A stretch of 64,000 nucleotides of DNA from a virus (IMGVR_UViG_2706795985_000001:1-64000), one strand, 5' to 3'; counted from the stretch's first letter, positions 19,580-33,829 are shown. Notes: generated by a model from the letters alone, not told the origin. Translations and numbers: made by a program.

Positions 19580-22112
19580 ATGGCTGACGATATGGTCTTT
19601 GACTTGGACCCTAACGTTATCGGGCCAAAGTCTAAAAAGCAGTATGACTTCATGCACAGCGAGGCTGATATTACCGTTTTCGGTGGAGCAGCTGGGGCAG
19701 GCAAGAGTTACCTAGGAGTTATGGATTTCCTGAAACACATTCAATACCCAAAATTCAGGGGTTGTATGGTAAGACGTACAACTCCACAGCTGAAAGGTCC
19801 GGGCGGTCTACAAGAGAAAGCCGAAGAACTTTTCAGATTGATTGATCCAAAAGTAAGATGGCGTGATAAAGAACACCACTTTGCATTCTCCAACGGGGCT
19901 AAGATTTATCTCCGTCACTTCGAAAATCCAAAAGACACTGAGAACTTTCAAGGTTGGGAAGTAAACCACTTTCTAGTCGATGAAGGCCAGCAGTTTGAAG
20001 AGATGATGGTGGAATACCTGACATCTCGTATGCGTAACCCTAAGTGTCCTGAAGTAAAACCCCACATGAAGATCACCTGTAACCCTGACTATGGATCTTT
20101 CCTTCGTCACTGGTTAGAATGGTGGCTTGATCCTGACACAGGAATTCCTATTCCTGAACGTGACAGCAAGATCAGGTACTTCCTAAAGCTTGATGGTAAG
20201 ATGGTTTGGGGTGATACAAAAGAGGAGTTAATCGAGAAGTATGGTAAGCCGCATCTAGCTGCAGATCATCAGAACCAAGTTAAACCCCTCAGCTTTAAAT
20301 TCATTGCAGCTAACGTTAATTAATAGCGTCCTTATACAGAAATGTATATTGAAAACCTTGTTAACTCAGGGGATATCCTAACGTAGAGTCGAGGACAATC
20401 CTGAGCGAAGCTCAGAGCATTCTGAGAACGTGCAACGACTATCGAAACCGCAGAGAAATCTGAAAGGGAGTAGAGTAGGGTCAAGTGACTCGAAAAGCAA
20501 GGCATCCTAACCCAAGGGAAGGATGATGATATAGTCTGGTCTGCATGGAAACATGCAGCAGTTCATAAGAGAACGAGGCACGCCTAACGAGCGTAGCTTG
20601 AACACAACGATATGACAACCCCGTCCTATGTAACGCACAGCCCGAATATGTTGGCTGGCTTGAAGGTCTTGGTAGAGTTGAAAAAGAACGCCTGCTTTAC
20701 GGAAGCTGGCTAGCACGTGCTGAAGGCACAGGCTATTTTAAATCACAATGGTGCAACATGGTTACTCAACGCGACATAGCCTCTGTTAAGCGTGTTCGTG
20801 CATGGGATATCAGCGGCTCCGTTCCTTCTGAAACCAATCGTAACCCTGACTGGACTGCTGGCGTCTTAATGAGCCGTAGTAAGCTTGGGACTTATACAGT
20901 TGAAGATGTTGTCAGAGATCGTAAGCGTCATGGCGGCGTCTTTGAACTAATACTTGAAACTGCTAGGCACGATGGTGATGATGTTCAAATTATCATTCCT
21001 TGCGACCCCGGTGCTGCTGGTAAAGCTTATGCTGCACAGTTAATCCGTGACCTTGCCGATCAAGGTTTCTACGCAAGAATGAAACAAACTAACAAGTCAA
21101 AAGTTACTCGATTTGCCCCCTTTGCAGCCATTGCTGAAGCTGGTAGTGTTGAGATTATTGAGTCAGACTGGACCAAGGACTACCTTCTAGAGCTTGAACG
21201 TTTTGATGGTAGCAAGAATATTAAAGACGATTAACAAACTGGTTGTCTATAAACTCATTGAATTCGGTGAACACCTCCAGCAAATGTTGTAGGCAATACC
21301 GAGCCAAGCCCACGAAGTGGGAAGGTGTAACGACTATTATGTAGCCCTCAAGTGAGGTCGAAGCAGTGAGCAACGGAGACGTTGAAGAGATAGTCTACTC
21401 TGCATAGTGATATGCAGCACTCATAATTTATAGGAGAATTTCTATGGAAAAGTATATTTCTAATGGTGGACATGAATTTGTAATTCTAAGTCAACAAGGC
21501 AAAAATTGTGTAATCCAGTTCACTAACACTGGTTGGGTACGCAAGGCTAATATCGACAACATTAAGGCTGGCAAGGTTAAAGATTTATTTGAACCTTCTG
21601 TCTACGGTGTTGGTTACTACGGAGAATTTGAAAAGAACTCCTATTGGAAGCAGGCAAAACAACTCTGGCAGAATATGCACAAGCGTTGCTATTGTGAGAA
21701 AGACTTGAAAGGTTACTTTGGAGAGGCTTTCGTATCCAGAGACTGGCACTGTTTTTCAAACTTCCTTAGTGATATTAGTAAACTCAAAAACTTTGATCTA
21801 TGGCTTAAAGGCCAAAATGGTGAGAGTTTAAAGTATAACCTTGACAAAGATTTATTGATTGCTGGTTGTAAAGTCTACAGCAAAGAAACTTGCCAATTTG
21901 TAAGTGAGTCTGAAAATAAAGCAGATGGAGCTACAAGGGGCAAGCCATATACCAAGAAAACAAGAGTGGCTAAGGAGTAACGACCCTTGGTTAATATATT
22001 GCAGGTCGATGCAACATCAGACGCTTTCCACGCTTTGTCATCTGAGCAGTATCTTCCAGACTTCTCAGTTCCAACAATGACTCAATCCAATCCATTTGCA
22101 TTTTACAGATAA
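19580..22112 (+). CDS. terL: Terminase large subunit, spliced: 19580-20316 + 20610-21231 + 22002-22112 (489 aa)
   Basis: GGAAGAGKS Walker A, LVDEG Walker B; splicing restores ANVYDNP and KDD|QVDATSDAF nuclease motif. Confidence 0.92.
20317..20609 (+). mobile_element. Group I intron terL-I1 (293 nt, no ORF)
   Basis: P1 ACGU/GCGU with U.G at 5' splice site; GACAATCCTGAGCGAAG, CAACGACTATC, GATATAGTC cores; terminal G20609; joined frame open. Confidence 0.92.
21232..22001 (+). mobile_element. Group I intron terL-I2 (770 nt) carrying an endonuclease ORF
   Basis: P1 GACGAU/GUUGUC; AATACCGAGCCAAG, TAACGACTA, GAGATAGTC; terminal G22001. Confidence 0.92.
21444..21980 (+). CDS. Intron-encoded HNH-type homing endonuclease
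   Basis: VYGVGY...WQNMHKRCY...WHCFSNF...LDKDLL...YSKETCQFV; AGGAG RBS. Confidence 0.85.
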   Translation: MEKYISNGGHEFVILSQQGKNCVIQFTNTGWVRKANIDNIKAGKVKDLFEPSVYGVGYYGEFEKNSYWKQAKQLWQNMHKRCYCEKDLKGYFGEAFVSRDWHCFSNFLSDISKLKNFDLWLKGQNGESLKYNLDKDLLIAGCKVYSKETCQFVSESENKADGATRGKPYTKKTRVAKE

Positions 22113-22120
22113 GGACAATC

Positions 22121-23986
22121 ATGGCCAAGAGAACAAAGATTGAAAAAGTTGCCACTCCGATGCCCCGTCTTCGTCTAGGTGAGATTGGTAGTGTTGGCCT
22201 AAAACAGTATGGCGGCCATGTTGCAGAAGAGCAACGTAGGGAACTTCAGTTTCCAGAGGCTTGCAGAACATTCCGTACAATGGCACAAGATGCCACGATC
22301 AAGTCAGCCATCTCTCTAGTAGAAATGATGATCAGTCGAGTTGACTGGACAATCAACCTTGGTGTTGGACCAGATGCAGCTATGAAGGCCCGTGGTGAAT
22401 TCCTTGAATCTGTAATCCATGATATGGATCATAGCTTTGATGACTTCATCAGAGAAGTGACCAGCATGTACACTTATGGATTTTCTGTTCATGAGAAAGT
22501 TTACCGTCGCAGAACATTTGAAGCTGGGTCTTCCTACAATGACAACAAGATAGGCATCAAGAAGCTACCTGTTCGCTCTCAGGACACGATCTCTCGCTGG
22601 GTATACAGTGATGACGGTAGAGACCTTATAGGTCTAGAACAGAACCTAGCGGGCATTCAGGGCGGAGACAGGTACGCCAACATGGTCAACCTCTCTTCTA
22701 ATGGGATCATTCAGATTCCTAGAAAGAAGTTTATGCTATTTCGTGTAGATGCTAAGCGTGACAACCCTGAGGGTAACAGTCCTCTACGTGGTTGCTATAA
22801 TGCTTGGCTATTCCGTAGGCAGATTGAAGAACAAGAAGCCATTGGTGTTACGCGTTGACTTTAGTCACACACCACTAACAAAAGTGAATAGCGCCTTCAG
22901 TTAGAAATGACTGTCGAATAAATCTCTTAATTGCTGGAAACTCCTTAGAGCCTTGAATACCGAAGTGTGACAATTTCAAGGATTGGACAATCAGCAGCGA
23001 AGCGCATGTGCCCTCCTGAATAACTCAGTAAGGAGTAAGACATATGATAAAATACCCAGAATCAAGAAACACTGGGTACATGCGAACGTTCAACGACTAT
23101 CCCGCAAGGGAGTAGGGCCAAGTGGCTCGAAATAGAGGTCATCCTACTAATGAGGATGGTGATATAGTCTGGTCTTATGTGAGAGCATAAGCAGTAGGTT
23201 TCTGGCATAGAGCTTACGGGTAGTGTCTAACGAGCACTATTGAACAACACGGATATGAACGGTATGCCAACTTTGTATCTTCCTCCACGCTATATGAGCG
23301 AGGATGCTTCTGATAGTGAGAAGGCAATCTTTGAATACTATAAGAACGTCATTCGTAACATCCAAATGAATGAGCAATCTGGTCTTATCTTGCCACAAGC
23401 ATTTGACCCAGAAAGCCGTCAACCACTCTTCAAGTTTGAACTGACTTCCACGCAAGGTGGGAAGATGTATGACACAGACGTAATCATCAAACGCTGGGAT
23501 AACAAAATCCTACAAGTTTTGTTTGCTGATATGTTGAAGATGGGTCAGGACCAAGTTGGATCTTACTCGCTGGCCGGGGCAAAAACAAATATTATGGCGA
23601 TGGCTATTGAAGCCCGTCTTAAAGAGATTCAAGACACCCTCAACAACGATTTGATTCCACAATTGTTTGCACTTAATGGGGAAACCCTGACAGCCAAACA
23701 ACTGCCTAAACTGCAGTATGGTGATCTTGACGAAGTTGACTTGGATGAATTCTCTAAAGCAATCCAACGTATGGGTAGTGTTGGTGCTCTTGAACTTGAC
23801 CGTCCTATGGCGAACAAGATTCGTGAAAGCATTAAAGTTGTGCCTAAGAAAGACGACGAACCAGTTGACAAAGAAGAGATCATGGGAGGCGACAGCCAAG
23901 CAGGTGACGGAATGGCAGCAGGCGGTGGTAATGGTGCTTCGAGTAATGCCTCATCAAGAGACAACGCTGCTGCCAATAACGCATAG
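22121..23986 (+). CDS. Portal protein, spliced: 22121-22855 + 23252-23986 (489 aa)
   Basis: Follows terL; NPEGNSPLRG...EAIGVTR|DMNGMP...QVGSYSL; frames join exactly. Confidence 0.9.
22856..23251 (+). mobile_element. Group I intron in portal gene (396 nt, no ORF)
   Basis: AATTGCTGGAAACTCC, GACAATCAGCAGCGAAG, GTTCAACGACTA, GATATAGTC; terminal G23251. Confidence 0.92.
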
Positions 23987-27839: not shown

Positions 27840-28208
27840 ATGCTAAATCCTCCGTTACTCCTGACTGGCAGAGTAAAACTACAAGTTATCAGACGAGAGT
27901 CAGAGACTATTGTTAGAGGCCGTCCAGTTGACGGTTTGGAAAGTGTTGTTGAGGTTGTGTGCAATGTACAGCCTATCCTTAAATCAACTGACACTTCGAT
28001 GCTACCCGAAGCTGACCGTTCCAAAGCTGCAATTAAAGTATACACAAATGGTGCAGCACTAAGGCAGAGAAAGGAAGGAGTTGGGGGTTGGGCAGCAGAT
28101 AGATTCTATTGGCAACAAGAGTTATATGAGGTATTAAAAGTAATAAACTACGACATAGGAATTTTGTCGCACTACAAGGCGATTTGCTTTAGGGTGGAGT
28201 TGACATGA
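27840..28208 (+). CDS. Head closure protein
   Basis: NVQP...LPE...KVYT...ADRF; position. Confidence 0.6.
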   Translation: MLNPPLLLTGRVKLQVIRRESETIVRGRPVDGLESVVEVVCNVQPILKSTDTSMLPEADRSKAAIKVYTNGAALRQRKEGVGGWAADRFYWQQELYEVLKVINYDIGILSHYKAICFRVELT

Positions 28209-28960
28209 TTAACATTGGAGATACTTTTGGGTATTTAACTGTAACTTCAAGCATACCAAGAGAGTTGCAAAGATATACAAAATCTGGGGCAAAGAATGGT
28301 AAGAGAGTTTTCTACGAATGTGCTTGTAGGTGTGGCAAAGCCTTGGAAGTTGATATCTGTAACCTTAGGCTTGGAGGTAGCTGTGGATGTTTGAGGACCG
28401 AGAATGCCCAAATCACCAAAAAGGCTAAGTATGATTTGTCTGGTATGTCCTTCGGAAGGCTGACAGTTTTAAAGAGGGTTGAGCCTAAATCTAAGATGTG
28501 GTTATGCAGGTGCTCTTGTAAAAACCACGTAGAAGTACAAGGTGCGAGATTGTCATCTGGCGATGTGTCAAGTTGTGGCTGCCTAGCAAGAGAGACTAGC
28601 AAGTATAACGGTGAAGCCACCGGGCGTAAATTTAGAGCTTTAGCTAATTTACCTCTAGACCAAAAAATAACAACAGATAACGAAGAGCAGCGTAAGTTGT
28701 TCAAGCCACTTTCAAAAGAAGTCCTCTTACGTGATGATTTTACCTGTTCTTGGTGCTCTAAGATTGGCGGGAATTTGAATGTACACCATATCGAGCTGTG
28801 GTCTGTAAAACCTGATCGCAGGTTCGATAGGACAAATTTGGTGACATTGTGCAAACCTTGTCACCTGACTGTACACAAGAATAACTTCCATGGAGAGCCT
28901 GACCCAATAATGAGTATCCTCCTTGAAGGCTACGCCAAGTACATGGAGGAGTTAACCTGA
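28205..28960 (+). CDS. Free-standing HNH endonuclease
   Basis: Two C.C.CG...SCGC modules; RDDFTCSWC...NVHHI...NLVTLCKPCH..VH. Confidence 0.85.
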   Translation: MINIGDTFGYLTVTSSIPRELQRYTKSGAKNGKRVFYECACRCGKALEVDICNLRLGGSCGCLRTENAQITKKAKYDLSGMSFGRLTVLKRVEPKSKMWLCRCSCKNHVEVQGARLSSGDVSSCGCLARETSKYNGEATGRKFRALANLPLDQKITTDNEEQRKLFKPLSKEVLLRDDFTCSWCSKIGGNLNVHHIELWSVKPDRRFDRTNLVTLCKPCHLTVHKNNFHGEPDPIMSILLEGYAKYMEELT

Positions 28961-29540: not shown

Positions 29541-31099
29541 ATGACCGTTCTTACGGATATCATCGAAATTAACATCAGTAGAGAAACTGCTGCTGTTGCT
29601 CAAACAAACTTCAACGTACCTCTGTTCATTTCTGCACACACAAAATTTGCAGAGAGAGCGCGTTCTTACACAAGCCTTCCAGCTGTTGCTAATGATTTTG
29701 ATCCTACAGACTCGGCATACATTGCTGCACAGAAGTTATTCAGCCAAACATTGACTCCGTCTAGAATTGTTATCGGACGTAGACTAGTGCCAAGCTCTAC
29801 TGTAAGCGTCAGCACTGCCGGGGCAGGGACTTACACTGTCACCATCAATGACATACCTTTTGCTTTTGTAGCTACTTCGTCGAACACTTCGATTCAAATC
29901 GCCACAGGACTTAAAGCTTCATATGACGTTACCCCTGTAGCAGGAGTCACTGTCACTGATAAGCTTGACGGAACGCTCACTGTAGCTTCTACAGTCGGGT
30001 ATTCCCTAGAGGTTTCTACAAATCTTAACCAAGCAAACTCGCCTTCTACAGAGTCTTGGGTAACTTCTGTTAACTCTGTAACAACAGTTGATAACTCTTG
30101 GTACGTGCTGACAATTGAATCTCATGCTGAGGCTGACGTTCTTGCAGTGGCTGCTCAAGTGGAAGGTATGAAGAAAGTTTTCGGAACCTCTTCTCAGTCT
30201 ACTGATGTTAAGACTACTTCTACAACAGATACATTCTCAAAGTTGAAAGCTTTGGGCTATCAACGCACTTTCGGTGTCTACTCTGCCACTGCAGATAGTG
30301 AATACCCAGAAGTAGCTTGGGTAGGATACCAGCTAAAAGAACAGCCCGGTTCTAACACATGGGCTTATAAGTCTCTTTCTGGTGTAACTGTAAGCTCACT
30401 GAGCCCAACAGAATCTACCAACGTGTTAAACAAATCTGCATCTACTTATGAAACTGTTGGTGGTCTGAACAGTACAATTGGTGCTAAGATGTTTGGTGGT
30501 GAATGGATCGACGTTATTATCTTTGTTGACTGGCTGGAACAGCGTATGAAAGAACGTCTGTGGAACCGTATGGCCAACAGCAAGAAAATTCCTTACACAG
30601 CAGCAGGCGCTGCAATCATCGAAGCTGAGATCCGTGCTCAGTTGAATGATGGTATTCGTGTAGGTGGTTTGGCTAACAGCCCAGCTCCAACTGTGTCTGT
30701 ACCAGATGTTCTTACCTTGTCCACAAACCTACGTGCTCAACGTGATTGAAGGTATCACCTTTTTCAAGCTAGACTAGCCGGTGCGATACATTTTGTGAAG
30801 ATATCAGGAACCGTTAATTAAAAGTGGCGGCTTTGTGGTGTGAACTACATCGAATAACTTATCTAATTCGGGGGATATCCTAACGTAGAGTCGAGGACAA
30901 TCCTGAGCGAAGCTCAGAGCATTCTGAGAACGTGCAACGACTATCCCGCAAGGGAGTAGGGCCAAGTGGCTCGAAATGGTAAGGGGCTTCCAATTTAAGG
31001 AAGTTCGTGATATAGTCTATTCTGCATGGAAACATGCAGCAGTTCATAAGAGAACGAGTGTTGTCTAACGAGCAACGTTGAATGTAAAGAACAGTATAA
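29541..31099 (+). CDS. Tail sheath protein, spliced 29541-30814 + 31090-31099 (427 codons; in-frame TGA at 30747 in this assembly)
   Basis: Sheath-like sequence (W.YK.LSGV, WIDVIIFVDWL); conserved-looking end QARLAGAIHFVKISGTV|TV lies in the same frame past the TGA. Confidence 0.85.
30815..31089 (+). mobile_element. Group I intron in sheath gene (275 nt, no ORF)
   Basis: P1 CCGU/GCGG; core blocks identical to terL-I1 and portal introns; terminal G31089; splicing gives GT|A ACA GTA TAA. Confidence 0.88.
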
Positions 31100-31112
31100 T
31101 TACGGAGACAGT

Positions 31113-31829
31113 ATGATAAATTACCTGTACAAGATTACTAACAAAGTTAATGGCAAGACTTACATTGGTATAACCAGAGACCCAGACTCAAGGAGAAAGC
31201 AACACCTTGTGTGGAAGCGTCAGTCTTCAAACTCTATTCTAAAACTCGCTATTGATAAGTATGGAAAAGATGCCTTTGAATTTGAGATTCTTGTTGCAGG
31301 TGATTTATCTTACATAAAAGATTTAGAGATTAAAGCTATTTTAGCCTATGACTCTCTAGCTGGCATTGGACATGGCTACAATATCCACTCAGGTGGTGGT
31401 CATAATAATGGCGGCGAACAAATAAAGTATCGTTCCGACGATAAACCAGTCTGCGCCTTTGGTTTCTGGTTTCCCAACGCCCGCACTGCCATCAAGTCTA
31501 TTGGCATTAACAAGAAGACTCTGTATGCCCGTAGGGCAGCGGGAACTCTACACCTTGAAGCTAGACCACTTAAAGCTATCGAACGCCCAAAGCGAGGCTC
31601 TGAGGAAGACACAGCTAATAGGTCAGCCTCTATGAAAGGTAAAAACTCTGGAGAGCGTAATGGTATGTTCGGAAGAAAGAATCCTTCACGCCACAGAGCA
31701 GTTACAGTGGAAGGTGTGCAGTACGAGTCAATCTCTGATGCAGTCAATAACACCGAATACACAAAATCTCAAATCGAAAAACGTCTAGCCAAAGGTGTAG
31801 ACGGATTCTCATACACACAGAGGAATTAA
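31113..31829 (+). CDS. Free-standing GIY-YIG homing endonuclease
   Basis: YLYKITNKVNGKTYIGIT...R.KQH...E...GYNI; helical DNA-binding C-terminus. Confidence 0.88.
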   Translation: MINYLYKITNKVNGKTYIGITRDPDSRRKQHLVWKRQSSNSILKLAIDKYGKDAFEFEILVAGDLSYIKDLEIKAILAYDSLAGIGHGYNIHSGGGHNNGGEQIKYRSDDKPVCAFGFWFPNARTAIKSIGINKKTLYARRAAGTLHLEARPLKAIERPKRGSEEDTANRSASMKGKNSGERNGMFGRKNPSRHRAVTVEGVQYESISDAVNNTEYTKSQIEKRLAKGVDGFSYTQRN

Positions 31830-31833
31830 AAAT

Positions 31834-32358
31834 ATGAGCACACAAAGGCTCGCAACTTTTGCGCCCAACGACGTGAGTGTCATTATCACGCAGTCGAGCA
31901 CAGGCATTGCCCACATTATCAGTGGCTACTCTGAGGAGTCCATCGTAAATATCGAATGGACAAGCCCTCGCTACGCACTTTACACTGGTGCTGACAACAC
32001 AGGTACACGTGTCTACAACGCAAGTAACTCTGCTACGTTGACAGTAAGCCTACAGCAAACATCTGCTTCTAACGATGTCCTGTCTCAGTTGTTTAACAAC
32101 GACGGACGTAACTCTGATGGACTTTTCTCTGTACAAGTAAAAGACGCCAGCGGTCGTTCTATCTACTTCTCTGATGATGCTTATATCGGTGTTCGTCCTA
32201 ATGCTGGTTTTGGTAACAGTATGATGACACGTGATTGGGTTATTCAGGCATTCAACCTTGATGGCTACGCAGGTGGTAACGCAATTGTAACCCCAGAAGA
32301 TCAGGCTACTATCGAAACTCTCGGTGGAAATCTGGCTGCTAAGTGGCTACAACAGTAA
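31834..32358 (+). CDS. Tail tube protein
   Basis: TFAPNDVSVII...GYSEESIV...TVSLQQTS.SND; follows sheath. Confidence 0.75.
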   Translation: MSTQRLATFAPNDVSVIITQSSTGIAHIISGYSEESIVNIEWTSPRYALYTGADNTGTRVYNASNSATLTVSLQQTSASNDVLSQLFNNDGRNSDGLFSVQVKDASGRSIYFSDDAYIGVRPNAGFGNSMMTRDWVIQAFNLDGYAGGNAIVTPEDQATIETLGGNLAAKWLQQ

Positions 32359-33478: not shown

Positions 33479-33829
33479 ATGAAGATTTGGTTTGTTTATA
33501 AAACCACTAACAATATCAGTGGTGGAGGAAGGTTTGAGTATCAAACTAAAGAAGAGTCCAGACAGAAAATGAGAAAGCCTAAAAGCCCTGAGCACAGGGC
33601 TGCTATTTCTGCGGGTAAGCTTGGAAAGAAGCTTTCGGATTCTCATAAGGCTGCCGTATCCGCTGGAAGATTAGGCTTAGTACATTCTGAAGAAACAAAG
33701 TTGAAAATGAGTAACACAAGATCAAATAATATCCATGAGACTGTGGAATGCCCACATTGTGGTAAAACTGGAGGTGCACCGGCAATCGGTCAGTGGCACT
33801 TTAATAATTGTAAACATAGGAGTGAATAA
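33479..33829 (+). pseudogene. GIY-YIG endonuclease lacking its catalytic domain (NUMOD3-type repeats retained)
   Basis: FVYKTTNNI joined directly to SGGG; SPEHRAAIS/SDSHKAAVS/SEETKLKMS repeats; CPHCG. Confidence 0.7.

Follow-up and report, generated by a model that had tools for sequence, protein, structure and literature searches.

Does a group I intron that carries no open reading frame (ORF) travel with the endonuclease gene that lies next to it? The question is raised by the end of the tail sheath gene in a 64,000-nucleotide stretch of viral DNA (IMGVR_UViG_2706795985_000001:1-64000; hereafter the window), where such an intron interrupts the third codon from the end of the sheath gene and a free-standing GIY-YIG homing endonuclease gene begins just past the sheath stop codon. 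The region shares 98.9% identity with Pseudomonas phage vB_PsyM_KIL2 (Flaumdravirus; hereafter KIL2), and the window resembles the KIL1/KIL3 subgroup, with five tRNAs. In the paper on the KIL phages there is no mention of introns or endonucleases. On balance, the sequence comparisons presented here lead us to think that the ORF-less intron hitch-hikes with the neighbouring GIY-YIG nuclease at the sheath terminus, an arrangement known as collaborative homing, for which the concept is documented (PMC3984707, PMC10448857).

The sheath intron and the endonuclease gene that follows it

The limits of the intron are defined by sheath genes that lack it. Exon 1 of the window's sheath gene is collinear with the intron-less 1284-nt genes of the Otagovirus phages 16Q, VCM and phiPsa374 exactly to 30814, which is also where BLAST homology with 16Q stops, and it ends ...ISGTV with the GT of Val425. 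The three Otagovirus genes end GGAACTGTAACCGTTTAA and continue with TTACGG, and the counterpart of the window's second exon in intron-less alleles is AACCGTTTAA. Positions 29541-30814 and 31090-31099 together make 1284 nt, end GGAACCGT joined to AACAGTATAA, continue with TTACGG and encode GTVTV followed by a stop codon. This predicted C-terminus and length equal those of the intron-less sheath genes of Otagovirus and Pakpunavirus phages, and of the 33 related loci that we tabulated, 30 have a sheath that ends in GTVTV-stop, down to a sheath identity of 44%. An earlier note on this DNA had proposed the same junction, a GTVTV ending and a last exon of 10 nt, and the 1284-nt intron-less genes agree with it.

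The segment removed by this junction has the features of a group I intron. Rfam family RF00028 matches 30806-31039 over its full model (positions 1-253) with 71.9 bits (gathering score 50; E 2.7e-16). The predicted 5' splice site lies directly after U30814, whose partner in P1 is G30827 (a U-G wobble), and the omega-G is the last intron base, G31089. A P1 U-G pair at the 5' splice site, a terminal G and a ligation that restores the sheath ORF are all expected of group I introns. An in-frame TAA (30819-30821) lies 5 nt into the intron. The predicted fold includes P7.1/P7.2-like hairpins and a 50-nt 3' tail with a hairpin of its own. A scan of the + strand from 30815 to 31089 found no ORF of endonuclease size, as the earlier note had claimed.

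By Rfam, the genome (90,552 bp) has five group I introns. Two of them interrupt terL, the portal and sheath genes have one each, and the fifth lies beyond the window. The first terL intron (terL-I1) and the sheath intron are close paralogues, tail included. The 3' splice site of terL-I1, checked against the intron-less terL of 16Q, lies 51 nt past the Rfam core, compared with 50 nt in the sheath intron. In P1, terL-I1 pairs ACGU/UA with UAGCGU and the sheath intron pairs CCGU/UA with UGGCGG, so that the U-to-G change in the guide matches the A-to-C difference in the exon and is compensatory. The sheath intron is 100% identical in KIL2, and it shares 68-80% DNA identity with Staphylococcus phage introns across much of its length.

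Other placements of the intron were considered and rejected. Splicing after G31039 or G31042, where the Rfam model ends, would yield GTVSS, GTVS or GTV plus QFIRERVLSNEQR before a stop codon; we reject these sites because GTVTV-stop followed by TTACGG fits the intron-less alleles, gene length is conserved and the terL-I1 tail is equal. A 3' splice site beyond the endonuclease gene, as in the second terL intron (terL-I2) with its internal HNH ORF, is excluded by an exon 2 that lies upstream of the endonuclease gene. Transposition of the intron between similar exons also finds little to build on, as the terL site AACGT^ATATGAC and the sheath site ACCGT^AACAGTA share merely CGT^A and a Val codon.

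The ORF that follows belongs to the GIY-YIG homing endonucleases. It matches Pfam PF01541 with 31.8 bits (cut-off 22.6) and PHROG families 314, 7168 and 5123, each of them annotated 'homing endonuclease', and it aligns without gaps to the catalytic domain of I-TevI (1MK0), residues 4-91 to 4-91 (E 2.8e-5). Y6, Y17, R27, H31 and N90 align with the catalytic residues of 1MK0; the catalytic Glu is E72, assigned by eye because the HMMER alignment is offset there. The catalytic domain thus looks intact. A match to Pfam SegE_GIY-YIG stays below threshold (24.3 vs 25 bits). The start of the gene is 13 nt past the sheath stop codon, in agreement with the 14 nt given by the earlier note, and 23 nt past the 3' splice site. 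The KIL2 annotation places a promoter for it in the intron tail, which our promoter scan did not support. Nor did we find support for an unmasking of its ribosome-binding site by splicing, as the unspliced and the spliced fold both leave this site accessible.

Features of the sheath-terminus locus and of neighbouring elements. Positions refer to the window unless a locus label is given.
Feature	Position	Strand	Details
Tail sheath exon 1 (DUF3383 family)	29541..30814	+	1274 nt; Pfam PF11863, 5.8e-29
In-frame TGA in exon 1	30747..30749	+	-2/+2 indel pair relative to KIL2 (alignment)
Last 57 nt of exon 1	30758..30814	+	cluster of mostly synonymous substitutions
P1 helix	30811..30830	+	exon CCGU and intron UA paired with internal guide UGGCGG; Rfam alignment, stem also recovered in a second analysis
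ORF-less group I intron	30815..31089	+	275 nt; Rfam RF00028; IA2-like
Sheath exon 2, coding part	31090..31099	+	A ACA GTA TAA: completes Val425, then Thr, Val, stop
TTACGG	31100..31105	+	retained start of native hairpin 3' arm; left junction of endonuclease cassette
Free-standing GIY-YIG homing endonuclease gene	31113..31829	+	238 aa; GGAG at 31103-31106
Tail tube gene (KPP10_Orf10/DUF3277)	31834..32358	+	Pfam; first ~50-60 nt hypervariable
Stop-codon hairpin	L002:3770-3800, L014:723-753		equivalents in other nuclease-less loci
terL intron 2 HNH ORF	21444-21980 (intron region 21195-22000)		PHROG 2081, 3e-57
HNH gene	28205-28960		present in the window, which lacks the HNH gene that KIL2 has within its sheath gene
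116-aa ORF with NUMOD3 repeats	33479-33829		PHROG 314/655 'homing endonuclease'; 3' of third tube paralogue

The window's record of exon 1 carries a flaw of its own. Relative to KIL2 it lacks GT near 30742 (after CAACGT) and has an extra TT in a T-run near 30761, and this indel pair (30738-30770) creates an out-of-frame patch of 8 codons that reads RD-stop-RYHLF in place of RVIEGITF. As written, the window's sheath ORF ends 65 nt upstream of the 5' splice site, whereas the KIL2 translation is open (...RAQRVIEGITFQARLAGAIHFVKISGTV). The TGA reflects either a sequence error or a defective allele.

Existing annotations of these sheath genes also merit attention. The KIL2 sheath is recorded in GenBank (L001:2747-4048) as a 'hypothetical protein' with an internal start and an end at the intron's TAA; two 'promoter' features lie in or across the intron, and the intron itself is unannotated. 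In the Pakpunavirus phage JG004 the sheath (L007:1649-2936) is annotated 177 nt shorter than that of PAK_P4, and tblastn returns it in two segments, which suggests a frameshift near the sheath 3' end of that record.

The sheath stop codon in related phages

Endonuclease and intron differ markedly in their distribution. At least seven other lineages have a homologue of the KIL endonuclease (52-58% identity) at the boundary of the sheath and tube genes, and none of these lineages has a sheath intron. Such homologues occur in 15 of 124 Pakpunavirus records, PAK_P4, JG004 and PaZq-1 among them (the same insertion is stated in PMC12846349), in the P. fluorescens phage Y1-MI, in the IMG/VR loci L022, L031 and L039, the last as a 58-aa remnant, and at the sheath/tube boundary of the IMG/VR loci L046 and L047, where the sheath is merely 44% identical. 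The sheath intron was found in a single lineage, consisting of the window and KIL2. Pattern scans of IMG/VR (one) and of metagenomes (two), together with surveys of sheath/endonuclease loci, turned up no sheath-intron allele beyond these two; one metagenome hit (L060) was set aside as an AT-rich chance match with no Rfam match. Nor did the surveyed loci and pattern scans contain a sheath intron without the endonuclease gene. The nuclease is thus intron-less in at least seven lineages, and the intron, in its one lineage, stands beside the nuclease.

Alleles without the nuclease share a conserved structure at this site. The sheath stop codon occupies the loop of a 7-10-bp hairpin, whose folding energy is -10 to -13 kcal/mol; examples are GTAACCG-TTTAATTA-CGGTTAC, GACCGTC-TAAG-GACGGTC and TTACTGTC-TAAG-GACAGTAA. 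Its non-coding 3' arm covaries with the synonymous (wobble) positions of the last sheath codons: 88.8% of hairpin cells are paired, compared with 30-55% in slid controls, and compensatory changes occur at 3 pairs. The hairpin might contribute to mRNA stability or processing, or to the coupling of sheath and tube. At the sheath end it is lost in all six of the nuclease-bearing alleles, being either absent or displaced downstream of the endonuclease gene.

The cassettes that carry the endonuclease gene enter within this hairpin. All cassette junctions lie no more than about 12 nt from the sheath stop codon, and they are of at least four types. In Pakpunavirus the homology breaks in the last sense codon; nuclease-bearing PAK_P4 and nuclease-less HJ01 are otherwise 100% identical on both sides, up to the last sheath codon. 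In the short-form lineages (Y1-MI, L022, L031 and L039) the endonuclease gene starts with an ATG that overlaps the recoded stop of the sheath gene (ACAGTCTGATG), and the end of the endonuclease ORF is a relic of the native sheath terminus and its hairpin, for example ...GNVTV-stop (TCACGGTTAC); the last ~4 sheath codons are thus repeated on either side of the short-form cassette. A similar copy of the native hairpin at the 3' end of the KIL endonuclease gene proved spurious, as KGVDGF is a C-terminal motif of the endonuclease that is also present in PAK_P4. The KIL cassette junction falls after TAATTACGG, and homology to nuclease-less alleles ends past TTACGG. The KIL intron site, GT^AAC, lies in the 5' arm of the hairpin, 16 nt from the cassette junction. 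Intron insertion site (10 nt before the end of the stop codon) and all of the cassette junctions thus fall within the same hairpin.

The sequences that flank the two KIL elements have diverged locally. Identity to 16Q is 75% in the last 57 nt of exon 1 and 93% in the preceding 240 nt (Fisher p = 4e-4); on the other side, it is 75% in the first 60 nt of the tube gene and 91% in the remainder (p = 2e-3). As on the sheath side, the changes on the tube side are mostly synonymous and are matched in no sampled lineage; none of the lineages sampled is more than 75% identical to the exon 1 patch. The 16 nt between intron and cassette have merely 2 changes. Between the window and KIL2 there are zero substitutions from ~30609 to 31827, a span that takes in the intron and nearly the whole endonuclease gene, and then 19 differences in tube nucleotides 1-48 (31834-31881). 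This patch, which adjoins the 3' end of the endonuclease gene, represents a recombination boundary or a stretch of hypervariability. A gradient is also seen in Pakpunavirus, where the identity of PaZq-1 (with the nuclease) to PAK_P1 (without it) runs 1.0, 1.0, 0.92, 0.90 and 0.82 toward the junction on the sheath side and is 100% on the tube side. Diverged flanks around the KIL pair are what a block of intron and endonuclease gene inherited by gene conversion would be expected to look like.

Collaborative homing weighed against its alternatives

The nuclease family and the intron converge on one conserved site of about 25 bp, which fits collaborative homing as defined in PMC3984707 and PMC10448857. 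In the chain of events that we infer, two selfish elements would share this site at the end of the sheath gene of a KIL-like (Flaumdravirus) phage of Pseudomonas syringae. The intron, placed within the Val425 codon, would splice itself out and join 30814 to 31090, giving a sheath that ends in GTVTV. Sixteen nucleotides past the intron begins the I-TevI-like GIY-YIG cassette, whose family is habitually found at the sheath/tube boundary. During co-infection the endonuclease would break the nuclease-less sheath terminus of a relative, where the hairpin encloses the stop codon, and repair from the KIL allele would copy the endonuclease gene. The intron would be copied as well, through trans or collaborative homing, because it lies 23 nt from the endonuclease gene and hence inside the conversion tract. 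Self-protection would come mainly from the insertion of the cassette, which destroys the hairpin and the target; the intron may add to this protection but would not be required for it.

The earlier note had gone further on this last point, proposing that the nuclease cuts intron-less sheath alleles near the 3' end and that the intron confers immunity. The first part is strengthened: the tie of the nuclease family to the site, the clustering of junctions and the divergence of the flanks all point to a nuclease that acts at the sheath 3' end, and the family's patchy occurrence at a fixed insertion site is indirect evidence that nuclease-less alleles are cleaved site-specifically. The second part loses ground with the nuclease present in at least seven intron-less lineages. 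Moreover, as PAK_P4 equals nuclease-less HJ01 up to the last codon, an intron is unnecessary for self-immunity there and the cassette insertion must protect.

Several observations count against a collaborating pair. Co-occurrence of the two elements carries no statistical weight because the intron is seen in a single lineage, and the pair is not obligatory, given that nuclease-bearing phages without the intron exist. The specificity of the KIL endonuclease could differ from that of its relatives, with which it shares only 52-58% identity. The hypervariable 5' end of the tube gene would also be compatible with cleavage on the tube side, and the recoded flanks could instead come from an unsampled divergent donor or from other nucleases of the tail module. 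Finally, the in-frame TGA means that the window's record may not encode a working sheath.

Some of these points are shared by the alternative that survives best, in which intron and endonuclease gene are independent neighbours at a shared hot spot. The nuclease would then be inactive or cut elsewhere, for example at the 5' end of the tube gene, and the intron would be an immobile passenger kept by splicing. The module is rich in nucleases and introns, with five introns per 90.5 kb, the HNH gene at 28205-28960, the NUMOD3 ORF and the HNH ORF of terL intron 2; even the window and KIL2 differ in the hypervariable 5' end of the tube gene; and decay of the endonuclease family at this site is illustrated by the 58-aa remnant in L039. 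However, a spacing of 16 nt would arise by chance in about 1% of cases, by our own rough estimate from five introns, about five free-standing nuclease genes and 90 kb, and the catalytic residues appear intact. In any case, an active nuclease would co-convert the intron from a cut as far as a few hundred bp away. We regard an uncooperative pair as rather unlikely, though it deserves to be kept in mind.

Alternatively, immunity may reside in the intron after all. Here the endonuclease site would span the intron insertion point, the intron would be the determinant of KIL immunity and an intron-deleted KIL allele would be cut. GIY-YIG recognition sites span about 30-40 bp, as for I-TevI, and the insertion site, 16 nt from the cassette junction, is within that reach. 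To the left of its cassette KIL also keeps more native sequence (a native-like TAA and TTACGG) than other nuclease-bearing lineages do, and removal of the intron would leave about 24 nt of near-native target contiguous. The intron-less nuclease lineages and the identity of PAK_P4 to HJ01 speak against this version as they did above, and the heavily recoded KIL exon flanks could give immunity without an intron. For these reasons we think it unlikely.

It is harder still to sustain the view that the sheath intron once bore its own endonuclease gene and has since lost it, leaving the GIY-YIG gene as an unrelated resident or a later arrival. Turnover of endonuclease genes was raised as an alternative in PMC10448857, and sister introns do bear a nuclease ORF (HNH in terL-I2, 21444-21980) or apparent start remnants in P6 (the portal and 72262 introns). 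The sheath intron, however, has no ORF remnant, a short P6 and a 3' tail in common with terL-I1, and the loci and scans that we searched contained no relative with an ORF-bearing sheath intron. Such a history seems improbable. That splicing does not occur and is simply tolerated, the sheath ending GTVN in place of GTVTV at the TAA 30819-30821, is suggested by the position of this stop 5 nt into the intron and by the KIL2 annotation, which ends the ORF there, but is very hard to reconcile with the conservation of GTVTV-stop in 30 of 33 lineages, down to 44%-identical sheaths, and with the maintenance of a full ribozyme core, P1 compensation and an exact 10-nt exon 2.

If collaborative homing is the better account, it is tempting to speculate further. 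The stop-codon hairpin of the sheath gene may be a homing site shared by both elements, and the KIL locus a natural intermediate on the way to a mobile intron. The endonuclease would cut within ~15 bp of the intron site and drag the ORF-less intron along, and this would be the first case with a GIY-YIG enzyme and in a virion structural gene. Insertion of endonuclease genes inside the first or last sheath codons, with a recoded spare terminus, would be general in this group; examples would be Y1-MI, L022 and L031 for the 3' end and KIL2 for the 5' end (described below). We offer this broader proposal only tentatively, and hold it to be possible rather than probable.

Comparison with known systems and neighbouring elements

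Systems of collaborative (trans) homing include the psbA intron of cyanophage S-PM2 with F-CphI, T7-like phages of the T3/phiI type, the ICP1 terminase intron with T5orf172, and T4 mobE with the I-TevIII intron. As in those systems (PMC3984707, PMC10448857, PMC2790892), a nuclease family and an intron meet at the same short conserved site in KIL, and an ORF-less intron stands beside a free-standing endonuclease gene. The KIL pair differs in its nuclease, which is GIY-YIG, whereas F-CphI is Endo VII-like and mobE HNH; in its host gene, a tail sheath gene with the intron only 10 nt before its end; and in a nuclease family that is widespread at the site without any intron. It also differs in being known from sequence alone.

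The endonuclease gene itself invites comparison with the free-standing GIY-YIG Seg endonucleases of T4-like phages, which home without introns. In both cases an I-TevI-like gene lies between two conserved genes, is patchy among close relatives (15 of 124 Pakpunavirus records here) and is accompanied by local flank divergence and conversion gradients. Unlike Seg genes, the KIL gene matches the SegE_GIY-YIG model only below threshold, and several cassettes of its family sit inside the last sheath codons with a recoded duplication of the terminus. The intron, in turn, resembles the phage IA2 introns (T4 td, nrdB and sunY, Twort, Kayvirus) in its core, its P7.1/P7.2-type hairpins and its early in-frame stop, but differs from them in being ORF-less, in lying in a tail-sheath gene and in belonging to a mosaic family of paralogues within one genome (the two terL introns and those of the portal gene, the sheath gene and the site beyond the window). 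The KIL locus is thus likely to be an unannotated case of a known arrangement, in which an IA2-like intron is combined with a Seg/I-TevI-like free-standing endonuclease in a manner resembling collaborative homing.

If confirmed, the locus would provide a tractable example of collaborative homing that can be cultured in the laboratory, as KIL phages grow on P. syringae pv. porri. Natural controls exist in phages with the endonuclease gene only (Pakpunavirus and Y1-MI) and with neither element (Otagovirus). With this set one could ask directly whether an adjacent nuclease lets an ORF-less intron gain mobility or give immunity, a question that bears on how mobile introns arise. Annotation would gain as well, since the KIL2 sheath is currently mis-called, truncated at the intron's stop, with 'promoters' placed within the intron.

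Nuclease genes and introns are dense among the structural-module genes of this genome, and ORF-bearing and ORF-less introns coexist in it. In terL intron 2 the HNH ORF follows the ribozyme core and precedes a short terL exon 3. The portal intron (22876-23191) and the 72262 intron (L013:1480-1920) have stretches in P6 that combine a Shine-Dalgarno sequence with an ATG, GGAGTAAGACATATGATAAAAT and GGAGGACAGTATGAGAAAAT, and both are similar to the way the free-standing GIY-YIG gene begins, GGAGACAGTATGATAAAT. Related endonuclease genes within these introns may have left them behind, or the similarity may be a coincidence. The 116-aa NUMOD3 ORF (33479-33829) looks like an N-terminally degraded endonuclease, and Y1-MI has an annotated homing endonuclease at the equivalent position (L006:3543-4127).

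The 5' end of the sheath gene has also received a nuclease gene. In KIL2 an HNH gene (L001:1750-2540) is inserted within the first 9 codons of the sheath gene; its ORF is fused in frame to the native sheath start, ATGACCGTTCTTACGGATATCATCGAA, and a recoded copy of that start, ATAACTGTCCTAACCGATATCATCGAA, with ATA replacing ATG, stands ahead of the remaining sheath gene. This junction mirrors the terminal-duplication junctions at the 3' end in Y1-MI, L022 and L031.

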